From a virus (taxonomy: Duplodnaviria > Caudoviricetes): DNA of 64,000 bases. Made by a program: the position numbers and the translations under genes. The DNA lies in the IMG/VR virus record IMGVR_UViG_3300050581_000016, positions 1 through 64,000 of that record. One strand, 5' to 3'. Every line of letters starts with the position of its first letter. Position 1 is the stretch's first letter. Shown here in pieces: positions 38,794 through 53,876 of this stretch. Under the pieces are notes generated by a model. The model saw only the letters and a list, made by a program, of their open reading frames with translations. It ran no database searches and was not told where the DNA came from.

Positions 38794-38896
38794 CCCCTTG
38801 AAAGAGTGAGGGCGGGAACATCCCGCCCTCGACGGCTAAGAAACAAACCCCAACGACGGGGCATCTGAATGCTAACCCCAAGTGAAAGGGCTGTCA

Positions 38897-40180
38897 ATGC
38901 GGAAGACCTTTGTGCTCGACACCAACGTCCTGCTCCACGACGACGAGGCTCTTTTGGCCTTCGAGGAGAACGACGTCTGCCTGCCCATCACCGTGCTGGA
39001 GGAGCTGGACGGCATCAAGAAAGGCCCTGGCGAGCTGGCGCGGAACGCCCGCCATGTCTCCAAGTTCATTGACCGGCTCAGAAGCCGGGGCAGTCTGGCA
39101 GACGGAGTGCCCCTGGGCGAGGGCCGTGGCAAGCTGCGGATCGCCGCCGAGAACGTGACCTTCAATTTCGCTGGCCTCAAGAACAGCAACGACAACTACA
39201 TCCTGGGTGTGACCCTGCGCCTGGCCGACGAGCAGAAGGCGTGGTCGGCCCCTGGCCGGGAAGTGATCCTGGTCACGAAGGACATCAACCTTCGCATCAA
39301 GGCCGACGTCATGGGCGTCAAGGCCCAGGACTATCTGAACCAGAGGGCGAGCGGCGTGTCCGGTTGCATCAAGGACTACTCCATCGGAAGGGACGTCGTT
39401 GACCGCCTCTACATGGAGCCTGGCTTCGCAATTCGGGCCGAGGACTTCAAAGAGAACGACTGCGTGATAGTGCGGGCGCATGATGACAGCTCAACGGCCA
39501 TGACGCGCTTCCAGCGGGGCGTCCTTCGCCTGGTCAAGCCCAGGTCGGAAATCCAGGGCATCACGCCCAGGAACGCCGAGCAGCGCTTCCTGGTGGAGCT
39601 GCTGACCGACCCCAACCTGGACATGGTGATCGTGAACGGGGTCGCCGGGAGCGGCAAGACGCTTCTCTCCCTGGCGGCTGGCCTGGAGTGGATCGAGAAC
39701 CTCAAAAAGGGGCGCCGCATTCTCATCACCAAGGTCATCGAGGCCGTGGGCAACGACATCGGGTTTCTGCCGGGGAACAAGCTGGAGAAGATGATGGAGT
39801 GGGTCAGGCCCTTCCTCGACAACCTGGAGCTGCTCATGGACGAGGAGTACGCCGATCAGTACATCGAGCGGGGCAGGATCGAGATCGACGCCCTGACCTA
39901 CATGCGGGGCCGGTCATTGATGAACCGCTTTGTCATCATCGACGAAACCCAGAACCTCCCGCCAAAGACGCTGAAGACTCTAGTCAGCCGGATCGCGGAC
40001 GGGAGTAAGCTGGTGATCCTGGGCGACCTCCAGCAGATCGACAACCCCTATCTGGATTCAAGGAACTGCGGGCTGGCCTACGTCATGGACAAGATGGCGG
40101 GCTTGCCCAACGTGGGCGTGCTCAGCATGGCGAAGGGAGAGCGCGGGCGCCTGGCCAGGCTGGCCGTCGAGCGCCTCTAA
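38897..40180 (+). CDS. phoH: PIN-domain PhoH-family ATPase
   Basis: PIN VLDTNV...LEELD...ND...VTKDINLRIKA; GVAGSGKT, YMRGRS, IDETQN, GDLQQID. Confidence 0.9.
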   Translation: MRKTFVLDTNVLLHDDEALLAFEENDVCLPITVLEELDGIKKGPGELARNARHVSKFIDRLRSRGSLADGVPLGEGRGKLRIAAENVTFNFAGLKNSNDNYILGVTLRLADEQKAWSAPGREVILVTKDINLRIKADVMGVKAQDYLNQRASGVSGCIKDYSIGRDVVDRLYMEPGFAIRAEDFKENDCVIVRAHDDSSTAMTRFQRGVLRLVKPRSEIQGITPRNAEQRFLVELLTDPNLDMVIVNGVAGSGKTLLSLAAGLEWIENLKKGRRILITKVIEAVGNDIGFLPGNKLEKMMEWVRPFLDNLELLMDEEYADQYIERGRIEIDALTYMRGRSLMNRFVIIDETQNLPPKTLKTLVSRIADGSKLVILGDLQQIDNPYLDSRNCGLAYVMDKMAGLPNVGVLSMAKGERGRLARLAVERL

Positions 40181-40917: not shown

Positions 40918-41562
40918 ATGCACTTGAAAGACACCTTATCTGTTGAATTAATTGGACATACCGACCTCGACGTGGCCATTACGGCCATGCGAAAATGTTG
41001 GGCCTCCGAGGACAAGACCGACACTTGCTGGAGGATTCAGAATGACCAAGTGGTCATGATACTTGGCGATAACGACCGGCGTTTGATCCAGCGGATCATC
41101 GAGAGCGACCATACCAGCACCGTTGAGCATATTGTCTATAATTTCGAGATCAAGGATATAAGCAGGGCTATTCTTCAGGAGCTGGCGCGTCATCGGATTG
41201 CAAGTCTGTCTGTGCAAAGCACGCGATATGCTCTGAAGAAGCTCCTGAACGGGGAGGTGGAGCTGGAAAGCCTCCTGGTTCCGAGCGGCAACGACCACAT
41301 TGACAGGCTCAATATCGAGATGCTGTACCGGCTGCGAAGCGTTGCCAGGAATTTCGATCTCCCAAACGACATCGCCAAGTACGGCATCCCGGAAGCCTTC
41401 AAGACGACGCTTATCTGGACGGCCAACGCACGAAGCCTTCGGAACTTCCTGAAGCTGCGGTCGTCAAAACGGGCGCACCCTGAGATCAGGCGCCTGGCCC
41501 ATGCCGTCTATGGCGCCCTGCCTGAAGATCACCGTCTTATTTTTGACGGCTGCATGAATTAA
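40918..41562 (+). CDS. thyX: FAD-dependent thymidylate synthase
   Basis: HTSTVEH, SRAILQELARHRIASLSVQSTRY, NARSLRNFLKLR, AHPEIR; operators at 40884-40893 and 41560-41569. Confidence 0.95.
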   Translation: MHLKDTLSVELIGHTDLDVAITAMRKCWASEDKTDTCWRIQNDQVVMILGDNDRRLIQRIIESDHTSTVEHIVYNFEIKDISRAILQELARHRIASLSVQSTRYALKKLLNGEVELESLLVPSGNDHIDRLNIEMLYRLRSVARNFDLPNDIAKYGIPEAFKTTLIWTANARSLRNFLKLRSSKRAHPEIRRLAHAVYGALPEDHRLIFDGCMN

Positions 41563-41587: not shown

Positions 41588-42223
41588 ATGATGAAGAGCC
41601 ATGATGTCGAGCGATTCCTCAATGAGAACGTCCCGTGCTTCCAGGGTGGAAGCGACCAGAAGCTCAGCGCTGATCTGAGGTTCGAGGAGGGAACCGGCCA
41701 GAAGCTCGAAGTCGATTGGGACTATCAGCACTGTGAACAGCCTCCACCAGCGCCATCCATCAAGGTCAAGGTCAACGGCCTCAATGTGGAGACGCTGGAC
41801 GACATGATCGTGAAGAAGATGCAGGCCGCAACGCACATCAGGGAGGACGCCTCTGAGGAAGAGAAGCGGGCGGCGGTCGAGGTCGGCGGGGCACGGTTCA
41901 ACGAAGGCAAAGTCAGGTTCGACCTCGTGCCGCCTGACGCCCTCTGGGAGCTGGCCAAGGTCTACACCTTCGGGGCCAGGAAGTACAGGGACAGAAACTG
42001 GGAGAAGGGCATGAGTTGGGGCATTTGCTTTGCGGCGGCCATGCGGCACCTGTGGAAGTGGTGGCGGGGCGAGCGGAACGATCCCGAATCGGGCATCCAC
42101 CATCTGGCCCATGCGGCCTGGAACTGCCTGTCTGCCCTGGCCTACGAGCTGCGGGAACAAACCGAGTTCGATGACCGCTACAAGCTGGGCCAGCCCAGGG
42201 GCTTCAGCCTGCCCCACGATTGA
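41588..42223 (+). CDS. DUF5664-type dATP/dGTP diphosphohydrolase
   Basis: RFNEGKVRFDLVP, GARKY..RNWEKG, AAMRHL, DPESGIHHLAHAAWN. Confidence 0.85.
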   Translation: MMKSHDVERFLNENVPCFQGGSDQKLSADLRFEEGTGQKLEVDWDYQHCEQPPPAPSIKVKVNGLNVETLDDMIVKKMQAATHIREDASEEEKRAAVEVGGARFNEGKVRFDLVPPDALWELAKVYTFGARKYRDRNWEKGMSWGICFAAAMRHLWKWWRGERNDPESGIHHLAHAAWNCLSALAYELREQTEFDDRYKLGQPRGFSLPHD

Positions 42224-43422: not shown

Positions 43423-43431
43423 TGGTATAAT
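43423..43431 (+). promoter_or_regulatory. Extended -10 promoter TGgTATAAT upstream of the ParB/PAPS-reductase cluster
   Basis: TG at 43423-43424, TATAAT at 43426-43431; operator TAAGCACTTA at 43362-43371. Confidence 0.55.
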
Positions 43432-43522
43432 AAGGATGTTTGGATCGAAAGAATGATTCATTGATTCCTCCTCCTCCCTTGGCCGGTGAGCATTCCTCAC
43501 CGGCCATTTCTTTTAAAGGCAA

Positions 43523-44179
43523 ATGATGGCTGACAAGATAAAGATCGAATGGGTTCCAAGACACGAGCTGACGGTCGCTGGGTACAACCCCAGGAAGATG
43601 CAGCCGTCCACCCTGGAGCGCCTCAAGAAAGGCATCAAAGAGTTCGGGATCGTTGACCCGCTCATCATCAACCGAGACGGCACGGTGATCGGAGGCCACC
43701 AGAGGCTCCAGGCTGCCGAAGAGTGCGGCTTCGCCGAGTTTCCCTGTGTGCGCCTTGACCTTGACGCCAAGCGTGAGAAGGCCCTCAACCTGGCCCTGAA
43801 CAAACTGGCGGGAGAGTGGGACTACACGAAGCTGAGCGCACTGCTCCTTGAATTCGAGGGCGAACCAGGTTTCGACATCGAGCTGACCGGCTTTGACGGC
43901 CTTGAGGCCATTGAGATGTCAACCCTGGGCAATGCCGACCTGGGAGGTCTTGGAGTGGCCGGGGGCCTGCCTGACGCGAGCGACCTGGGCAGCCCTATCG
44001 AGGGCGCCGGATCGACCGGCGACTCGAAAACCAAGAAAACGGGCCTTCAATATGTCATCGTCTTCAGCGACGAGGGCGAGCAGCGCGAGTGGCTCGACTA
44101 CCTTGAGAGCCTCAAGGAGCGCTATCCAGACGAGGAAACGGTCAGCGCCCGCATCATTCGGGACATCACAGAGCGATAG
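43523..44179 (+). CDS. ParB/Srx-like N-terminal domain protein (ParB-1)
   Basis: YNPRKM...IKEFGIVDPLIIN...VIGGHQR. Confidence 0.85.
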   Translation: MMADKIKIEWVPRHELTVAGYNPRKMQPSTLERLKKGIKEFGIVDPLIINRDGTVIGGHQRLQAAEECGFAEFPCVRLDLDAKREKALNLALNKLAGEWDYTKLSALLLEFEGEPGFDIELTGFDGLEAIEMSTLGNADLGGLGVAGGLPDASDLGSPIEGAGSTGDSKTKKTGLQYVIVFSDEGEQREWLDYLESLKERYPDEETVSARIIRDITER

Positions 44180-44188
44180 GTGACTCCG

Positions 44189-45343
44189 ATGGCGACAGTC
44201 AGCCGATATTACAAGACGACCAACGTGTTCGAGGAGGCCCTGGAGCGCATCCGGTGGGTCTTCGACGAGTTCAAGAACGTGGTCGTGAACTATTCGGGCG
44301 GGAAGGACAGCACCATTATCCTTGAGATGGCCCTCATGGTCGCCAAGGAGAAGGGCAGGCTTCCACTGCCGGTCTTCTTCATCGACCAGGAGATCGAGTG
44401 GAACACGACCATCGACATGGTGCGCGACGTCATGTACCGGCCAGAAGTCAAGCCCTACTGGCTCCAGGTTCCGTTCAAGATCGAGAACGCAACGTCCTTC
44501 GAGGACGGATGGTTGTACGCCTGGAGGCCGGGAGACGAGTGGATTCGCCCGAAAGACCCCATCGCCATTCATGAGAAGACGTTCCCAGGCGAAGAGTTCC
44601 ATGACCTCTTCGAGGGCTGGGGCAACGCCATGTACGGCGGCACCGACCTGGCGAGGCTCACCGGAGTCCGCGGTGAGGAGTCAAGGAACAGGCTGATGGG
44701 CCTGACCTGCTATGCCTGCTACAAGTGGGTCACTTGGGGAAGGAAGCACTCTGGGCGCGAGAACCACATCTCGTTCTCCCCTATCTATGATTGGTACTAC
44801 ACGGACGTCTGGAAGGCCATTCACGAGCACGGCTGGAAGTACAACGCGCTCTACGACATCCAGTACCAGCGTGGCGTCCCGGTCAGGAACATGCGGGTTT
44901 CAAACCTCCATCACGAAACAGCCGTGAAGTCCCTGGAGATGCTCCAGGAGATCGACCATGACCTCTACAACAAGGTTACGAGGCGGCTCAACGGGATCGA
45001 CGCCTACACCAAGATTTCCGAAATCTTCATCGTCAAGAAGCTGCCGTTCATGTTCGCATCATGGCGGGAGTACCGGGACTTCTTGTTCGAGAAGATCGTG
45101 ACCGATGAGAGCGCCGCTCAGACCTTCCAGAAGCACTGGAAGCCGCTGGAGGACGTGATCGACTTCATTGGCGATCCGCACTTCACCGAAGCGCTCATCA
45201 AGTCCGAGATCAACGCCATGCTGGTCAACGACCGTGCGGGCACGAAGCTCAACAACCTGTCCGGTTGGATCGACGGCGAGAAGAAGAAGGCCGAAGCAAG
45301 AAAGGGCGTCAAGTATGTCGATAGAAAATCACCCCGTACATAA
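44189..45343 (+). CDS. PAPS-reductase-fold adenine nucleotide alpha hydrolase, IbrA/YbdN (DUF3440) type
   Basis: PP-loop YSGGKDS, FIDQEIEW, GVRGEESRNR, SPIYDW...DVW, MRVSNLHHE. Confidence 0.85.
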   Translation: MATVSRYYKTTNVFEEALERIRWVFDEFKNVVVNYSGGKDSTIILEMALMVAKEKGRLPLPVFFIDQEIEWNTTIDMVRDVMYRPEVKPYWLQVPFKIENATSFEDGWLYAWRPGDEWIRPKDPIAIHEKTFPGEEFHDLFEGWGNAMYGGTDLARLTGVRGEESRNRLMGLTCYACYKWVTWGRKHSGRENHISFSPIYDWYYTDVWKAIHEHGWKYNALYDIQYQRGVPVRNMRVSNLHHETAVKSLEMLQEIDHDLYNKVTRRLNGIDAYTKISEIFIVKKLPFMFASWREYRDFLFEKIVTDESAAQTFQKHWKPLEDVIDFIGDPHFTEALIKSEINAMLVNDRAGTKLNNLSGWIDGEKKKAEARKGVKYVDRKSPRT

Positions 45344-46691
45344 CGTCCAATGGGTTCCGCTGGAGAAGGTCGAGGCGAACAGCTACAACCCCAACTCCGT
45401 GGCCATCAACGAGATGAAGCTGCTCTACACCTCGATCAAGCACGATGGCTACTGCGTCGAGGAGTCTACACCTGTTTTAAGGGCCGACCTAACCTGGGTT
45501 CCAGCAGGTGAATTATCTGTTGGAGACAAGATCATTGCGTTTGATGAGTATGCGACTGGGAACGGGGACGGCAGGAAACAGCGTCGCTATCGCACGGCTT
45601 CAGTCGTGTCAAACTCCATTGAAGAGAGTGACCTGGTAAGAGTTGAAACGGATCGTGGTGAGCTGCTTACGACTCCTGACCACCCTTTCTTAGCAAAGCG
45701 CTGTTACGGCAGAGGGTATCACATGGCCGATTGGATCATGGCCTCTGACTTGCGACCCGATGACATCGTGATCTATTTGATGGCTCCATGGGAAGTTGAC
45801 CGATCATATGATGCTGGATGGCTCTCTGGCTTTCTTGATGGAGAGGGGACGCTGGCGAACAACCAGAATAAAAGTCGGAAGCCTACTGTTCGACTGGCTG
45901 GGTATCAGCGCCCAGGCACTACAGCCGACCACATGGTTGCAGAAATGGCCAAGCGAGCGCTGACGAAGGTTTTTACTTTAGACCGGACGGGCCATGTCAA
46001 ATGGAGCAGCATGGTTATGGCGCGGGTTGACCGCCTCACCGAAGTGATGCGGCTTTTAGGCTCGGTTCGCCCAGAGCGCCTGATTGAAAAAGGCGGTGTT
46101 TTCTGGGAAGGGTGTGCCCTGTCTTCCAAGCTTAAGGATGAGACGAAGGCAGTAGTTGCGTCTGTTAGCCAAGAACGGCGCGGCAACATTGCACGGTTGT
46201 CTACAACTACAAAGACCTATATTGCCAATGGGTTTGCGGTTCATAACACTCAGCCCATCGTGACGGTCTACGACGAGGCGCAGGACAAGTACATTATCGT
46301 GGATGGATTCCATCGGCATCTGGTCATGAAGCACAACCGGGACATCTACGAGGACACGGGCGGCCTGCTGCCGGTGGTGGTGCTCAATAAGGACATCAAC
46401 GACCGCATGGCCTCCACCGTCAGGCACAACAGGGCCAGAGGGCGGCATGCCGTTGAGGGCATGGCGACCATCGTGTTCTCGATGCTCGACAACGGCTGGG
46501 CCGACATCGACATCTGCAAGGAGCTGGGCATGGAGCACGAGGAGCTGATCCGGCTCAAGCACATCACCGGCTTCTCCAAGCTCTTTGAGGACGTCGAGTA
46601 TCGGCGGGCGTATGAAACCAAGCGACAGGTCAAATTGAGGCTCGAATGGGAAGAAAAACATTCGTCGTCATCTCAGTCTCCGACAGAGTAG
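45315..46691 (+). CDS. IbrB/YbdM-type ParB-like protein (ParB-2) interrupted by an intein
   Basis: Exteins read YNPNSVA...SIKHDGY|TQPIV...IVDGFHR...STVRHNRARGRH; 193 aa after intein removal. Confidence 0.85.
   Translation: MSIENHPVHNVQWVPLEKVEANSYNPNSVAINEMKLLYTSIKHDGYCVEESTPVLRADLTWVPAGELSVGDKIIAFDEYATGNGDGRKQRRYRTASVVSNSIEESDLVRVETDRGELLTTPDHPFLAKRCYGRGYHMADWIMASDLRPDDIVIYLMAPWEVDRSYDAGWLSGFLDGEGTLANNQNKSRKPTVRLAGYQRPGTTADHMVAEMAKRALTKVFTLDRTGHVKWSSMVMARVDRLTEVMRLLGSVRPERLIEKGGVFWEGCALSSKLKDETKAVVASVSQERRGNIARLSTTTKTYIANGFAVHNTQPIVTVYDEAQDKYIIVDGFHRHLVMKHNRDIYEDTGGLLPVVVLNKDINDRMASTVRHNRARGRHAVEGMATIVFSMLDNGWADIDICKELGMEHEELIRLKHITGFSKLFEDVEYRRAYETKRQVKLRLEWEEKHSSSSQSPTE
45453..46247 (+). 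mobile_element. 265-aa intein with a LAGLIDADG-type motif
   Basis: Starts CVEESTPVL, block B TTPDHPF, AGWLSGFLDGEG, ends GFAVHN followed by Thr; lower GC than flanks. Confidence 0.9.
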
Positions 46692-47452
46692 GCGAGCTGA
46701 ACGCCCTGGTGGGGCAGATCGCAGCCGACTCGCGCTTTGACTCTTATGACGTCAACCTCTACTTCCAAGACCCGCAAGGCGTGGCTGGGAAGATCGCACA
46801 CCGTGACCGCTATGAGCGCGTCATCGTCGTGCCCGAGCTGGCAGGCTGTCACGGGGCCAGAGTCCTTCTCTTGAGGGAGCTGGACGGGGCCGGATACGAC
46901 GCCTACGTCAACCTGGACGACGACATGGAGCTGTGCGGGCACACCGACTACGAGCCTGCGGTCGCCTTCTCAGGCTATCCAGGGATCGGGTTTGTCATGA
47001 CGAACTGGGCCAAGACCATGCCCCTTCTGGAAAAGAAGGTTCCGGCCATGCTCAGGCATCGGGCCTCCGGCATGGGCCGGTTCAAGCGTCAGATCATGCT
47101 CTACAACGGTGGAGGCATGGTCTACCGGGACAGGGTCGCCGACCTCATGCGTCAGCTCGAACCCGTCAAGACGGCCTTTGATTGTGCCTGGCCGATCACT
47201 TCTTATGTCAACGGGTTCGAGAACTACCGGGATCAGGGCAGCCTTGCCGTCCACAAGGTCTGCGGGACGGGCGGCATGAACGCCTTCATGGCAGCGACAA
47301 AGCTGCATGTGATGTGCGAAGAGTGGCTGGAGTTCCTGCCTGCAAAGAAGCAGGACGGAAGCTGCACCTCCGTCTTGATACCGCTGGACGCCCAGGTGAA
47401 GCAGGCTGCCAAAGAGGCTCACGCCAAGGCGAGAAGGGAAATGGGACTATGA
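46646..47452 (+). CDS. GT-A fold glycosyltransferase-like protein
   Basis: N-terminal VVISVSDR strand, DxD motif VNLDDDM, GGGMVY, C-terminal HKVCGTGGM. Confidence 0.65.
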   Translation: MGRKTFVVISVSDRVGELNALVGQIAADSRFDSYDVNLYFQDPQGVAGKIAHRDRYERVIVVPELAGCHGARVLLLRELDGAGYDAYVNLDDDMELCGHTDYEPAVAFSGYPGIGFVMTNWAKTMPLLEKKVPAMLRHRASGMGRFKRQIMLYNGGGMVYRDRVADLMRQLEPVKTAFDCAWPITSYVNGFENYRDQGSLAVHKVCGTGGMNAFMAATKLHVMCEEWLEFLPAKKQDGSCTSVLIPLDAQVKQAAKEAHAKARREMGL

Positions 47453-47991
47453 ACAGGGTCGAGATGAACCGCAAGCAAATGCTTGAGTACATTGCCAGGA
47501 CTCTAGGCATGACGGGCGGCGTGATCGCCGAGGTCGGAGTGCTACGGGGCACCTTCGCAAAGAGCCTGCAAGACGCCCTGGCGCCCAGCAGAATGTACCT
47601 GGTCGATCCCTGGCAGGCGTTCCCGCCCAGCGAGTTCTCCGACTACACCAGCTATTCCCAGGCGAAGTGGGATGCGATAGCGGCCTCGGTCGCCAGCCGT
47701 TTCCCGCCTCCTGTGAATGTGATCTTGCGTATGACATCGGAGGAGGCCGCTCAGCACGTCCCAGACGGCTCCCTCGATATGGTCTACCTGGACGGGAACC
47801 ATGCTTACGAGCATGTGGCCCAAGACTTGCGGCTCTGGTTCCAAAAGGTCAGACCTGGCGGGTTCATCGCTGGACACGACATAGACCGGAAAAGCGTCGG
47901 AAGGGCCGTGGGTGAGTTCCTGACCAGCATCAGCGCCTCGGCGCACATGACCAACGAGAAGTCCTGCTGCTCATACTTCTGGCAGAGATAA
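47449..47991 (+). CDS. Class I SAM-dependent methyltransferase (Methyltransf_24 / sugar O-methyltransferase-like)
   Basis: AEVGVLRG, LVDPW, DMVYLDGNHAY, KVRPGGFIAGHD; 4-nt overlap with the GT gene. Confidence 0.85.
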   Translation: MNRVEMNRKQMLEYIARTLGMTGGVIAEVGVLRGTFAKSLQDALAPSRMYLVDPWQAFPPSEFSDYTSYSQAKWDAIAASVASRFPPPVNVILRMTSEEAAQHVPDGSLDMVYLDGNHAYEHVAQDLRLWFQKVRPGGFIAGHDIDRKSVGRAVGEFLTSISASAHMTNEKSCCSYFWQR

Positions 47992-48000
47992 GGAACAGCC

Positions 48001-48573
48001 ATGCAAATCGTCGATGTCAAGATCGAACAGATACGCCCCTACTGGCGAAATCCTCGCAAGAACGAGAAGGCCATCCAGGCCGTCAAGGAGTCCATAGAGC
48101 GCTACGGCTTCAACGTGCCCATCGTGCTGGACATGGCAGGCGTCATCATTGCCGGTCACACCCGATACAAGGCGGCCCTGGAGCTTGGATGGAAGTCGAT
48201 CCCGTGCATCTACTCCGACATGGACGAGAAGAAGGCCAAGGAGTACCGGATCGCCGACAACAAGACCGGCGAGCTGGCCCAGTGGGACATGGCGAGCTTG
48301 AAGCTGGAGATGCGCGAGCTTGAGTTTGACGGCTCCCTCCCAGGCTTTGACGAGGCCGAGATGAGTTCATTCCTGAGCGACATCTCGTTTGGCAACGCGA
48401 GCCTTCCGTCGCTCGATGGAAGCGACAAGGATCAGGAGCGGTTCGACCGCAAAGAGGCTGAGCTGAACTCCAAGTTCAGCGATCATAGCCAGAAGATGCA
48501 GGACAACTACGTCACGGTCAACTGTCCTCATTGCGGCAAGGAGTTCGTCCTTGACAAGAACGACATGGGGTAG
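48001..48573 (+). CDS. ParB-like N-terminal domain protein (ParB-3) with C-terminal CPHC
   Basis: RNPRKNE...SIERYGFNVPIV...IIAGHTR...YRIADNK. Confidence 0.85.
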   Translation: MQIVDVKIEQIRPYWRNPRKNEKAIQAVKESIERYGFNVPIVLDMAGVIIAGHTRYKAALELGWKSIPCIYSDMDEKKAKEYRIADNKTGELAQWDMASLKLEMRELEFDGSLPGFDEAEMSSFLSDISFGNASLPSLDGSDKDQERFDRKEAELNSKFSDHSQKMQDNYVTVNCPHCGKEFVLDKNDMG

Positions 48574-48655: not shown

Positions 48656-48967
48656 ATGATAGAAATTGAGCCGATTCAGTTTGACGAGGAAAGTGCAGTC
48701 AGGGCCAGGGCATTCATCGAGGCCGTCAGATGGCAGGTCGCCAAGACCTACGAGAAGACGGCCCCTCACGAGTACACCGTCAGAAAATGGTGTCCCGATC
48801 TTGAGAAGGAGTACGCCTGGTTTGACATGCTCATCCGCGATGCCGGTGTCAAGAAGAAGTTCTGGAAGACCCAGTACAGCTACTTGTACCTGGACGGCTA
48901 TCGTTATTGGACGGGCTGGCCGCCGATCCTCATCAATAGATGCCCAGCAGACCAACCCTGGCAGTAA
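48656..48967 (+). CDS. Aromatic-rich hypothetical protein
   Basis: RW..AKTY...PHEY...YLYLDGYRYWT...LINR; own candidate promoter TTGTGA-17-TATAAA at 48592-48620. Confidence 0.65.
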   Translation: MIEIEPIQFDEESAVRARAFIEAVRWQVAKTYEKTAPHEYTVRKWCPDLEKEYAWFDMLIRDAGVKKKFWKTQYSYLYLDGYRYWTGWPPILINRCPADQPWQ

Positions 48968-49951: not shown

Positions 49952-50275
49952 ATGAAAAGAATCATTACTGCATTGGTGATCGCCCTGACGCTCGTGATTG
50001 GAGCGCCCATCGTCAACGCCCAGGACGCCGTCTGTGTTGATCCGAATGGATGGGTCGTTGCGTGCTCCACGGAGGAGTACAAGGTGTTGCAGCCTCAGAT
50101 GGACGGGCCGAACCTGTGGTCGGCAACGATTGTCGTTAAACGGAATTCACCGCTCATGAGCACCAGGGATAAGGTCGTGGCGGTTTACGGTCGTACCTGC
50201 GATGAGGCCCAGGATCGGGCGCGGCAACTGCTTCGGATGCTCAGGGGCGGCAAGGACTTCATGGAAGGCAGATAG
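49952..50275 (+). CDS. Exported hypothetical protein
   Basis: MKRIITALVIALTLVIGAPIVNA signal-peptide pattern. Confidence 0.65.
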   Translation: MKRIITALVIALTLVIGAPIVNAQDAVCVDPNGWVVACSTEEYKVLQPQMDGPNLWSATIVVKRNSPLMSTRDKVVAVYGRTCDEAQDRARQLLRMLRGGKDFMEGR

Positions 50276-51414: not shown

Positions 51415-52083
51415 ATGGGTCGGGAACCCAAGAAGCCCAAGGAAAGGAAGGTTCCGAGGAACCTGAGCGCCGATACCTGGGTCGAGATACAGGCCCAGTG
51501 GGAAGCGGGAGTGCCTGGATCAGAGCTGGCGAGGAAGTACGGCTTGACGCCGTCTGCCATCACCCACAGAGCCAAGAAGGACGGCTGGCTCAGAGGGGCC
51601 TCCATCAAGACCAGGGCCATCGAAGAGGCCCGTCAGGAGGTCAAAGAGAAGCTCAAGGACACCTACAAAGACCTGGTCGAGAAGGCCAACGAGCAGCACA
51701 TGAAACTCGCCAACTACGGCGAGCAGTTCGGGATCATCCTCTGGAAAGAGCTTGAAATCAACATGAAGGCGCTCCAGAAGCAGCGCCTGGACATGGGTCA
51801 CACTGACGAGAACCCCATCTGCCTGCATGACTTCGGCAAGATCAACGGCCAGTACAAGTCGATCTGGGAAACCCTGGAGAGTGTCGCCAGGTTCAAGCGC
51901 GACGTCCTGAAGATGGGCGAGCACAACTCGTGGATGAGCGACGAAGAGAACCAGGACTCCATCCAGCGGCTCAACGAAATCTTTGAGGAGGGGCGCAAGC
52001 GGTATGAGGAGGTGAGCGGGGATGCTGACAAGGAGGCCACGACAGCGGGCGAAGCTGTTCACCCCGATAATCCACCCAAATAG
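51415..52083 (+). CDS. terS: Probable terminase small subunit
   Basis: N-terminal HTH (WEAG...ELARKYGLTPSAITHRAKKDGW) followed by coiled coil; overlaps terL. Confidence 0.7.
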   Translation: MGREPKKPKERKVPRNLSADTWVEIQAQWEAGVPGSELARKYGLTPSAITHRAKKDGWLRGASIKTRAIEEARQEVKEKLKDTYKDLVEKANEQHMKLANYGEQFGIILWKELEINMKALQKQRLDMGHTDENPICLHDFGKINGQYKSIWETLESVARFKRDVLKMGEHNSWMSDEENQDSIQRLNEIFEEGRKRYEEVSGDADKEATTAGEAVHPDNPPK

Positions 52084-53359
52084 CAAGTCTGAGGAATCAC
52101 TCTATCGCAGCACGAGGCGCCTCAACATCTGGGAGGGCAGCGTGCGGTCGGGCAAGACCATTTCCAGCATCCTTCGCTGGGTCAAATGGGTCGTGACCGA
52201 AGCCCCTGACGAGGGCGAGCTGCTCATGACCGGCAAGACCTACAAGACGATGGAGCGCAACGTCCTCAACCCGATCATCGACATGCTGGGAAGCCGGAAC
52301 GCCTGGTACAACCGAGGCACGGGCGAGTTCTTCATCCAGGGATGCAACCGGCCCATCAACATCATCGGGGCAAACGACGAGCGCTCCCAGGAGAAGATTC
52401 GAGGCGCGACCATTTGCGGGGCCTACGGCGATGAGCTGACGCTCTGGCCCGAGTCCTTCTTCAAGATGCTGCTCTCCAGGTTGAGCGTCAAGGGCGCCAA
52501 GTTCTTCGGGACGACGAACCCCGACAGCCCGTATCATTGGCTCAAGAAGGAGTACATCAACCGGCAGCACGAGCTGGACATGGCCGTCTTCCACTTCATT
52601 CTGGAAGACAACCCCTTCCTTGACCCAGACTACGTCTCGTCGCTCAAGAAAGAGTACACGGGCCTCTGGTACAAGCGCTTCATCGACGGCCTCTGGGTGC
52701 TGGCCGAGGGCGCCGTCTACGATATGTGGGACGACGACCTTCACACCCTGGACGTGCGGGCCATGCTCGAAGCGGACGTCAAGGGCGGCAGGCGAGGACA
52801 GCCCAGGTTCAGGCGATACTTCGTGGCCATTGACTACGGCACGAACAACCCCTGTACGTTTGGCCTCTACGGCTTTGACAAGGGCGTCGTCACGATGGGC
52901 GGCAAGGCGATCATCCCGAAGGTCTACCTTGAGAGGGAATACTACTGGGACAGCAACGTCACGAGCAGACAGAAGACGGACGCCCAGTACGGCGACGACT
53001 TCGTGAAGTGGCTGGGCGGCATCCGGCCCGAGGCCATCTACGTTGACCCCAGCGCCTTGAGTTTCATATCAGAGCTGCGGCACCGGGGCTACCGAGTGAC
53101 CGAGGCCAAGAACGACGTTCTGGACGGCATCCGGTTTGTCGGGAAGCTGCTGAGCGCCGGGAAGTTCCTGATCGACAAGTCCTGCGAACACACGACCGGC
53201 GAGTTCAGCGCCTACGTCTGGGACACCAAGGCCCAGGCACGGGGCGAGGACAAGCCCATCAAAGAACACGATCACGCGATGGATCGGAACAGGTACGGGC
53301 TTTACACCCACTTCTTCAGAGAGAATCCGACCCTGATCCACGGCTTCAACTTCAGGTGA
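52022..53359 (+). CDS. terL: Terminase large subunit (PBSX-like)
   Basis: GSVRSGKT, GDELT, TTNPDSP, IDYGTNNP, YVDPSA, DHAMDRNRY. Confidence 0.95.
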   Translation: MLTRRPRQRAKLFTPIIHPNSKSEESLYRSTRRLNIWEGSVRSGKTISSILRWVKWVVTEAPDEGELLMTGKTYKTMERNVLNPIIDMLGSRNAWYNRGTGEFFIQGCNRPINIIGANDERSQEKIRGATICGAYGDELTLWPESFFKMLLSRLSVKGAKFFGTTNPDSPYHWLKKEYINRQHELDMAVFHFILEDNPFLDPDYVSSLKKEYTGLWYKRFIDGLWVLAEGAVYDMWDDDLHTLDVRAMLEADVKGGRRGQPRFRRYFVAIDYGTNNPCTFGLYGFDKGVVTMGGKAIIPKVYLEREYYWDSNVTSRQKTDAQYGDDFVKWLGGIRPEAIYVDPSALSFISELRHRGYRVTEAKNDVLDGIRFVGKLLSAGKFLIDKSCEHTTGEFSAYVWDTKAQARGEDKPIKEHDHAMDRNRYGLYTHFFRENPTLIHGFNFR

Positions 53360-53452
53360 TTCCCACTTTTGCCATCAAAACAGGGCGTGATTCCCACTTT
53401 CATTTGTTCACCCTCGGTAAAGCGGGAACGGAATTTTGAAAATTCCCACTTT
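53356..53452 (+). repeat. Three direct repeats of ATTCCCACTTT
   Basis: GTGATTCCCACTTT at 53356-53369 and 53387-53400; ATTCCCACTTT at 53442-53452. Confidence 0.8.
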
Positions 53453-53474
53453 GGGCCAATTTTGGAGGCAACCA

Positions 53475-53876
53475 ATGAATGAAGTTCCCGTCAAGCGACA
53501 CCGGCTTATCCTTGAGGGCTACGGATGCTCTGACGTGATCGTCCAGGACGTGCATGACTTCCTGATCGAGCTGACCGTGGCGCTCGACATGCGAATCCTC
53601 GTTCCGCCGATGATCGTCCAGGTGCCCATCGTGAAGCCCGCTCCAGGCATGGAGACGGAGGACATCGGCATCAGCGGGCAACTCATCTGGATGGAGTCTG
53701 GCTGCCAGGTGCATCAGTGGACGAAGCATGGGTTCGTCGCAGTGGACATCTTCAGTTGCAAAGCGTTCGCCCAGGCCAAGGCCGAAGACGTCTTCGACAG
53801 ATTTTTCCAGCCGATTACGCTTCGCAGTTGCGTCCCTGTCGTCCAACCCTATACGGCGGGCCTGGACATGCATTGA
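53475..53876 (+). CDS. speD: Pyruvoyl-dependent S-adenosylmethionine decarboxylase-like proenzyme
   Basis: HRLILEGYGC, GISG...MES cleavage site, downstream H (VHQW), VDIFSC. Confidence 0.75.
   Translation: MNEVPVKRHRLILEGYGCSDVIVQDVHDFLIELTVALDMRILVPPMIVQVPIVKPAPGMETEDIGISGQLIWMESGCQVHQWTKHGFVAVDIFSCKAFAQAKAEDVFDRFFQPITLRSCVPVVQPYTAGLDMH

Follow-up and report, generated by a model that had tools for sequence, protein, structure and literature searches.

A Candidate DNA Hypermodification Cassette Organized around an IbrA/IbrB Pair in a Caudoviricetes Virus Record

Results and Discussion

Gene Content of the Cassette

The DNA stretch analysed here, which will be referred to as the window, comprises 64,000 nucleotides (nt) of a virus assigned to the Caudoviricetes (Duplodnaviria) and corresponds to positions 1 to 64,000 of the IMG/VR virus record IMGVR_UViG_3300050581_000016 (76,298 bases, CheckV completeness ~67%). 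Upstream of the packaging genes it carries a cassette that combines an IbrA-like PP-loop enzyme with three ParB-type proteins, a glycosyltransferase (GT), a methyltransferase (MTase) and a small protein designated sm; most of this cassette had been put forward from the sequence alone as a candidate new DNA hypermodification system (the original prediction). Six open reading frames (ORFs) on the + strand span 43523-48573 and overlap or abut, with successive junctions of 0, -29, -46, -4 and +9 nt, and TerS-like and TerL genes lie downstream, which confirmed the predicted arrangement. An intein in the IbrB gene and a seventh ORF at 48656-48967, which begins 82 nt past the sixth, had gone unnoticed, and the cassette is therefore to be extended to 48967, giving seven genes. 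The predicted gene identities (three ParB-like proteins, an IbrA-type protein, a glycosyltransferase and a sugar-type methyltransferase) were supported and further strengthened by profile matches and by a structural model of the GT. The features are as follows (lengths in amino acids, aa; SAM, S-adenosylmethionine).

43523-44179, + strand: ParB1, stand-alone ParB/Srx N-terminal domain with a GGHQR motif (PF02195, E 7e-7; phrog_620, E 1e-38)
44180-45343, + strand: IbrA-like PP-loop ATP pyrophosphatase, PAPS_reduct plus DUF3440 (phrog_2302, E 6.5e-76)
45315-46691, + strand: IbrB-like ParB/Srx protein split by an intein, extein of 193 aa with a DGFHR motif (phrog_2159, E 1e-63, matched in two pieces)
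45453-46247, + strand: intein of 265 aa, IbrB residues 47-311, inserted at DGY/TQP, 16 residues before DGFHR
46646-47452, + strand: GT-A fold glycosyltransferase, 268 aa (alignment and AlphaFold model)
47449-47991, + strand: Methyltransf_24 class I SAM methyltransferase of the O-methyltransferase type, 180 aa (PF13578, 64.6 bits, cut-off 26.3)
48001-48573, + strand: ParB3, second stand-alone ParB/Srx N-terminal domain, with an AGHTR motif (PF02195, E 2e-9; phrog_620, E 5e-53)
48656-48967, + strand: sm protein, 103 aa (present in 72-77 of 101 loci)

Conservation of the Cassette in Related Loci

The + strand ORFs of 101 loci were clustered, comprising 80 loci selected through IbrA, 20 selected through the GT, and that of the window itself; as the set is anchored on these two genes, the co-occurrence values are descriptive only. 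A fixed set consists of IbrA (97 loci), ParB/IbrB proteins (98 loci, ~2 per locus) and sm. The variable set includes a GT25-like protein (37 loci, weak Pfam match), the GT-A enzyme of the window (22), a GNAT-like protein (22), further SAM methyltransferases and pyruvoyl decarboxylases of the SpeD-like (7) and PvlArgDC (4) types. In about half of the loci TerL was found inside the fetched flank. Relatives of IbrA occur in 223 cultured-phage records, and close relatives in at least 568 IMG/VR contigs. The cassette type is widespread and biochemically unstudied, and the window holds a seven-gene version of it.

The original prediction had proposed a neighbourhood survey of IbrA/IbrB together with the GT and the MTase as a check. 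Scanning IMG/VR with the GT alignment yielded 20 loci, 19 of which have IbrA, an intein-free IbrB and one or more additional ParB genes encoded on one strand and at most a few kb apart; the contig of the twentieth starts inside IbrB. Neither the 50,697 cultured-phage records searched by tblastn nor 185,579 species-representative genomes (one per species) contained a match to the GT family. Since this family was found only alongside IbrA/IbrB, the GT, IbrA and IbrB form one functional unit, and the varying gene order among the GT loci speaks for selection that keeps the genes together and not for common descent of a single arrangement. With the other members of the cassette included, this unit combines a putative adenylating enzyme and a glycosyltransferase with three ParB/Srx proteins and a methyltransferase of the sugar type. 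Particular to the window are the intein in IbrB, a GT-A family not encountered apart from IbrA/IbrB, and the partnership with Methyltransf_24.

An apparent GT-IbrA fusion in locus L002 (2854-4788, ORF of 644 aa) arises from a single-base difference to the near-identical locus L001 (2213-4148), located in an A-run where the two genes overlap. It was not counted as Rosetta-stone evidence because it may be an assembly error, and the search found no longer fused forms of the GT.

The IbrA-Like Enzyme

The second gene shows the IbrA architecture, with PF01507 at 60.5 bits (cut-off 22.5) and PF11922/DUF3440 at 26.7 bits (cut-off 25). An alignment of 14 sequences with 37-45% identity revealed as invariant motifs the PP-loop SGGKDS, DQE, GxRxxES..R and PxYDW, and no invariant or nearly invariant Cys. 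Searching the ESM Atlas with the DUF3440 part returned nothing but DUF3440/IbrA clusters. By profile, the closest solved relatives are CysD and FAD synthase, enzymes that move AMP from ATP to a substrate oxygen. Because these relatives transfer AMP, adenylation followed by displacement through an outside nucleophile would be the best-supported chemistry for IbrA.

The original prediction had drawn an analogy to DndC and SspD, which stood for the architecture and failed for the chemistry. The DndC equivalog TIGR03183 reached 23.9 bits against a cut-off of 290.4, and the DndC/BrxP profile matches were weak (E ~1e-8), the one to PADLOC DndC (E 4e-8) covering the N-terminal 90 residues only. A cysteine desulfurase (PF00266) was absent from the 76-kb record (~67% complete), with 14 of 14 control genomes matched, and a host IscS could substitute for it. 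The lack of an invariant Cys excludes a PAPS reductase of the CysH type and argues against Dnd-like sulfur chemistry.

The same findings bear on the reading of IbrA as an auxiliary metabolic gene, that is, a true PAPS reductase boosting host sulfate assimilation, which the PF01507 match and the database name "PAPS reductase" would suggest. We give it next to no weight. It is effectively refuted by the missing CysH-type catalytic Cys; in addition, the SGGKDS loop of ATP pyrophosphatases is intact, the CysH/PAPS-reductase NCBIfam models score far under their cut-offs (TIGR02057, 25.6 versus 254.2; TIGR00434, 23.9 versus 165.1), and pairing with ParB-like proteins is obligate. IbrA-like "PAPS reductases" are routinely labelled as sulfur-metabolism genes in viromes, and for want of a catalytic Cys and in view of the obligate ParB partners this label is wrong for the family.

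ParB-Type Proteins and the Intein in IbrB

Both stand-alone ParB/Srx domains show their best alignments to the N-terminal region of fusions between ParB and a DNA methyltransferase, with E 5e-37 (phrog_498) and 1e-28 (PADLOC MTase_II) for ParB1 and E 2e-40 and 2e-25, respectively, for ParB3, thereby providing a link to DNA. The IbrB gene, which overlaps the IbrA gene by 29 nt, was found to be interrupted. Its insert begins with C47 (Cys1) and ends with H310-N311, is followed by T312 (+1), and contains a single LAGLIDADG-like motif (LSGFLDGEG); it matches NF038136 (E 4e-12), with TIGR01445 at 23.5 bits just under the cut-off of 24.5. IbrB homologues in 20 of 20 related loci are without the insert and align gap-free to residues 3-47 plus 312-455. 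Judged from the sequence (Cys1, His-Asn, the +1 nucleophile and absence from orthologs), the insert is an intein. On the nucleotide level the only similarity to cultured phages was that of the IbrB exteins to Microbacterium phages (~70% identity).

Glycosyltransferase and Methyltransferase

For the GT no match was obtained in Pfam (E up to 0.01), PHROG, NCBIfam or PADLOC. Its 57 homologues are all metagenomic, and three of them carry a precomputed PF00535 match. Invariant in an alignment of 31 sequences are N89, D91-D92-D93 (DDD), G155-G157 (GGG) and G209-G210. Structure prediction with AlphaFold (AF2) gave a model of high quality (predicted local distance difference test, pLDDT, 96.1; predicted template modelling score, pTM, 0.92), which resembled B4GALNT1 (VIA Z 18.2; root-mean-square deviation, rmsd, 3.3; 206 aligned), ppGalNAc-T2 (VIA Z 16.3; rmsd 3.7; 226 aligned; ppGalNAc-transferases ~16) as well as SpsA and the nucleoside glycosyltransferase AvpGT (VIA Z 14.8 each). 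VIA Z was 8 or higher for 916 of 998 aligned chains, with Foldseek E ~1e-7. Based on this model, the assignment as a GT-A fold glycosyltransferase is supported; the structure does not settle DNA as its substrate.

In the original prediction the combination of DDD and a GG motif was taken as a mark of DNA-base glycosyltransferases. The motifs proved to be invariant; the mark itself could not be verified, since in BFVD models of TET-associated glycosyltransferases (TAGT) at ranks 9, 46 and 49 and the T-even beta-glucosyl-hydroxymethylcytosine (HMC) alpha-glucosyltransferase at rank 25 (E 4e-7 to 8e-6) scored like generic GT2 enzymes. The original prediction had also noted that no cysteine desulfurase, TET/JBP or deoxynucleoside monophosphate hydroxymethylase is visible, and this was borne out across the 76-kb record: in addition to PF00266, neither a ThyA-type enzyme (PF00303) nor Tet_JBP (PF12851) was matched, the latter being a weak negative because the control genomes were silent as well.

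The true start of the MTase gene lies at 47449, yielding a protein of 180 aa in place of the 269-aa ORF. A TylF match of 21.2 bits remained under the cut-off of 23 and was restricted to the C-terminal 76 residues. The MTase was detected in six of the 101 loci, five of which also carry the GT-A family of the window, and five out of nine longer homologues are fused to glycosyltransferase domains (PF05637, PF04488, PF00534/PF13692). These fusions fit O-methylation of a sugar, as had been predicted for Methyltransf_24, and support a putative role as a sugar-directed methyltransferase.

The Small Seventh Protein

In related loci sm is encoded either on its own or fused to the N-terminal side of a class I SAM methyltransferase, and P37, H38, Y84 and N94 are invariant. 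The AF2 model (pLDDT 91.9) has no counterpart among solved structures, the best matches being VIA Z 4.4 (Ku core; rmsd 3.1, 68 aligned) and Foldseek E 0.36; a profile search of PDB sequences was not significant, and the ESM Atlas gave no usable match. Among 1.84 billion cluster representatives, profile searching identified a family of 3,798 members, and tblastn against the 50,697 cultured-phage records found none.

Twenty longer members of the family were tested for fused domains. A C-terminal SAM methyltransferase was present in seven (one sub-threshold), GNAT in one, DUF433 in one and a PD-(D/E)XK nuclease (PF14281, E 6e-21 and 2e-17) in two. The nuclease-type fusions are located in Prevotellaceae/Bacteroidales genomes with no IbrA, IbrB, ParB or GT within 8 kb. 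In a Prevotella locus (L106) the sm-fusion gene is flanked by a regulator with WYL and WCX domains and by a gene with GmrSD_N and DUF7834, surroundings that look like a defence island. As sm is joined to methyl- and acetyltransferases in phages and to nucleases in bacteria, it would most simply be a module that binds a nucleic-acid substrate common to these enzymes. We consider sm to be probably a substrate-targeting or reader domain and, on the strength of its fusion partners, a candidate reader of modified DNA; these fusions would constitute the strongest new indirect argument for DNA as the substrate of the cassette.

A different substrate is nevertheless conceivable. IbrA might adenylate a carboxylate or phosphate of a packaging or virion protein or of a metabolite, the GT and the MTase might build a methylated glycan on it, and the ParB/Srx proteins might serve as NTP-binding enzymes or scaffolds, so that the cassette would modify a protein or make a small molecule. 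The best structural matches of the GT, which are protein, lipid and glycan glycosyltransferases, would agree with this, as would the fusion of MTase relatives to glycan-type GT domains, the adenylation of small molecules by CysD and FAD synthase, and the location of such cassettes within or adjacent to modules for packaging and structure (in Flavobacterium phage FCL-2, TerL lies on one side and portal on the other). Moreover, sulfiredoxin, whose substrate is a protein, is among the members of the ParB/Srx fold. Three ParB-type proteins in one cassette, two of them of the type fused to DNA methyltransferases, are however difficult to reconcile with a protein or metabolite as target, and the same holds true for the occurrence of sm in PD-(D/E)XK nuclease fusions and next to a GmrSD_N gene. 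No gene for a carrier protein or peptide precursor was recognised in the cassette. Taken together, we regard a protein or small-molecule target as possible and rather unlikely.

The Leader of the Cassette

Two features precede the first gene.

43423-43431, + strand: extended -10 promoter-like motif TGgTATAAT (read from the sequence)
43480-43516, + strand: terminator-like hairpin plus TTTCTTTT (hairpin 43480-43506 with 11 pairs, 8 of them G-C, and a loop of 5)

The single extended -10 promoter assigned to the six genes in the original prediction is present as a motif, of which no second copy was found elsewhere in the window. Yet a consensus scan detected no matching -35, and the terminator-like hairpin intervenes: the hairpin and T-run are located ~50 nt past the extended -10 and 16 nt ahead of the first ATG of the cassette. 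An Rfam search of the leader gave a best match of E 0.21, below the gathering score. In lambdoid phages the late promoter is likewise followed by a terminator in an antitermination layout. By analogy the leader of the cassette resembles this arrangement, and its motifs suggest a late promoter at which read-through would be regulated, by either antitermination or attenuation.

A leader of this kind at the head of the late region would also be in line with a regulatory role, in which IbrA/IbrB control late or prophage gene expression and the GT, the MTase and the additional ParBs are unrelated passengers of a variable region. Consistent with such a role, cultured phages carry a bare IbrA/IbrB pair without GT or sm, as in FCL-2, and activation of prophage genes, the phenotype reported for E. 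coli IbrAB, is reflected in database names. Passengers, however, would hardly be expected to belong to a GT family found only with IbrA/IbrB or to overlap with their neighbours. In related loci other transferases and enzymes that make amines occupy these positions, as would be expected of a pathway rather than of passengers, and the PP-loop of IbrA is conserved intact. A purely regulatory function thus appears improbable.

Neighbouring Genes and Amine Supply

From ~11 kb on almost all genes of the window are on the + strand. The block upstream of the cassette encodes RecA, an SbcCD-like pair, a dUTPase, a ribonucleotide reductase, a PIN-PhoH protein, ThyX and a MazZ-like dATP/dGTP diphosphohydrolase, and the packaging genes follow downstream.

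40918-41562: ThyX (thymidylate synthase equivalog)
41588-42223: MazZ-like dATP/dGTP diphosphohydrolase, adjoining ThyX (PF18909, E 6e-37)
51415-52083: TerS-like gene, downstream of the cassette
52022-53359: TerL, downstream of the cassette
53436-53876, + strand: SpeD-like pyruvoyl decarboxylase, outside the cassette and directly after TerL (PF02675, E 6.6e-12)

The MazZ-like gene raised the question of a Z-genome or a deazaguanine-containing genome. Neither a PurZ-type gene (PF00709) nor a tRNA-guanine transglycosylase (TGT; PF01702) was found across the 76-kb record, and the virus therefore does not, on present evidence, look like a Z-genome or deazaguanine phage. The fusion of a PIN domain and a PhoH-like ATPase (432 aa, 38882-40180) closes the nucleotide-metabolism block. 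Between the cassette and the terminase genes lies a 107-aa ORF (49952-50275) with a signal-peptide-like N-terminus, MKRIITALVIALTLVIGAPIVNAQ, and without any family match.

The presence of ThyX, dUTPase, ribonucleotide reductase and the MazZ-like enzyme upstream might indicate that the cassette acts on free nucleotides before their incorporation or, alternatively, on RNA such as tRNA, as is known for the PP-loop enzymes TilS, ThiI and TtcA; indeed, many nucleic-acid-modifying PP-loop enzymes act on tRNA. The cassette, however, is set apart from the nucleotide-metabolism genes by its own promoter-like motif and hairpin and lies by the terminase genes, it contains no nucleotide kinase, and both the ParB-type partners and the nuclease fusions of sm point to DNA. 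RNA or nucleotides as substrate are consequently of low probability.

The Ser, His and Cys positions are kept in the SpeD-like protein of the window. Members of its family are located inside IbrA cassettes in L001/2, L009 and L058/64/71, and PvlArgDC (PF01862; E 1e-30 for the copy in L010) is encoded inside cassettes that carry the GT family of the window (L006:1702-2178, L010:9885-10397, L017:7444-7971 and L018:9885-10397). It has been demonstrated that SpeD homologs encoded by phages decarboxylate arginine or ornithine (PMC10407285). Together with the decarboxylases in related cassettes, this makes an amine a reasonable idea for the substrate of the IbrA step, with the SpeD-like protein as candidate supplier.

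Proposed Function

We propose that the cassette is expressed late and attaches a covalent modification to the DNA of the phage itself prior to packaging, a reading to which we assign a probability of roughly one half. The most likely decoration would be a methylated sugar. In this scheme the ParB/Srx-type proteins (IbrB, ParB1 and ParB3) would load the machinery on DNA, and IbrA, as an enzyme of the CysD/FAD-synthase type, would use ATP to adenylate a DNA oxygen of either base or backbone. A nucleophile, possibly an amine from the SpeD-like decarboxylase or from the host pool, would then displace the AMP ester, the GT-A enzyme would add a sugar from a nucleoside diphosphate sugar, and the Methyltransf_24 enzyme would O-methylate the added sugar, while sm might bind the substrate and recruit the decorating enzymes. 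The original prediction had likewise proposed ATP-dependent activation of a DNA position followed by glycosylation and methylation. The functional unit and the identities and folds of its genes stand, as do the missing sulfur-type catalytic residues of IbrA and the interchangeable decorating enzymes of relatives, and the sm fusions add indirect support for DNA; DNA as the target, the order of the steps and the chemical product are what we infer only.

Several points weigh against this proposal. The closest solved structures of the GT have proteins, lipids and glycans as substrates, known DNA glycosyltransferases are not conspicuous among its matches, and fusions of Methyltransf_24 with GT domains are typical of glycan biosynthesis in general. 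With no ThyA-type enzyme and no TET/JBP match, the record offers no known route to a hydroxylated base on which a DNA glycosyltransferase could act. The IbrA/IbrB pairs of cultured phages that lack GT and sm indicate that the core function needs no sugar, and bacterial genomes carry the sm domain without IbrA/IbrB. In E. coli ECOR-9, IbrAB reportedly activate prophage gene expression, which is to our knowledge the sole phenotype reported for IbrA/IbrB and is echoed by database names such as "co-activator of prophage gene expression." In the literature searched we found no functional study of IbrA/IbrB or DUF3440 and no experiment with any IbrA/IbrB protein touching DNA.

If the cassette does modify DNA, it would be a new way, driven by ATP, of generating hypermodified bases or a hypermodified backbone and bear on the evasion of restriction and CRISPR, on sequencing artefacts in viromes and on the search for new enzymes that modify DNA or read its modifications. 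The sm domain with its lack of a known fold offers a concrete handle on a candidate writer-reader pair. A wider and clearly more tentative proposal is that IbrA/IbrB cassettes constitute a large group, not described so far, of systems that hypermodify DNA after its replication, in which DNA is adenylated directly, a nucleophile (in some cases an amine) is installed and then glycosylated, methylated or acetylated, and sm is the matching reader that has been reused in modification-dependent nucleases of bacteria. The window would then specify a methylated-sugar adduct of DNA formed without a hydroxymethyl-pyrimidine intermediate.

Comparison with Known Systems

The designation as a candidate new system is fair with respect to the literature searched, in which the cassette is undescribed. 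Pairing of a ParB-like protein with a DNA-modifying enzyme is known from DndB/DndC and DpdB/DpdA (PMC12839542), and one passage of a review (PMC13551039, citing Piel 2022) states that a phage PAPS reductase aids evasion of Dnd defence. With the Dnd/Ssp systems the cassette shares a PP-loop enzyme of the PAPS-reductase fold (DndC/SspD) and a ParB-like protein (DndB) in a context of DNA modification. It differs in having neither an invariant Cys, a desulfurase nor, among the genes of the cassette, a DndD/DndE-type partner, the sulfur enzymes being replaced by sugar-, methyl-, acetyl- and amine-making enzymes. In the Dpd system a ParB-like NTPase (DpdB) similarly assists the DNA-modifying enzyme DpdA (PMC12839542), whereas the record of the window lacks a TGT/DpdA homolog and the catalyst is a PP-loop protein.

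The glycosylation of DNA bases by phages, including the T-even glucosyl-hydroxymethylcytosine, TAGT and base J systems, has in common with the cassette a phage-encoded enzyme of the GT-A type, and TAGT and T-even models are among the viral fold matches. In contrast to these systems, no hydroxymethylase or TET/JBP match is present in the record, and the TAGT and T-even models rank no higher than generic GT2 enzymes. A further parallel is offered by lysidine and agmatidine synthesis (TilS/TiaS): there, with TilS being a PP-loop enzyme, the carbonyl of a base is activated by ATP before an amine displaces the activated group. The likeness is restricted to an analogy of mechanism, to which the arginine/ornithine-type decarboxylases of related cassettes can be added; the substrate of the cassette is presumed to be DNA, and the cassette adds sugar and methyl transferases.

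The closest counterpart is the IbrA/IbrB pair itself, which is known from an island of E. coli ECOR-9 and has the paralogs YbdN/YbdM in K-12. In both cases a protein with PAPS_reduct and DUF3440 adjoins a ParB-like partner (phrog_2302, named "PAPS reductase," and phrog_2159), and such pairs are borne near packaging genes by Flavobacterium phage FCL-2, Microbacterium phage Hendrix, mycobacteriophages and streptococcal phages. The pair of the window is distinguished from them by an IbrB that carries an intein and by its location among a GT-A enzyme, a methyltransferase of the O-methyltransferase type, two more ParBs and sm.

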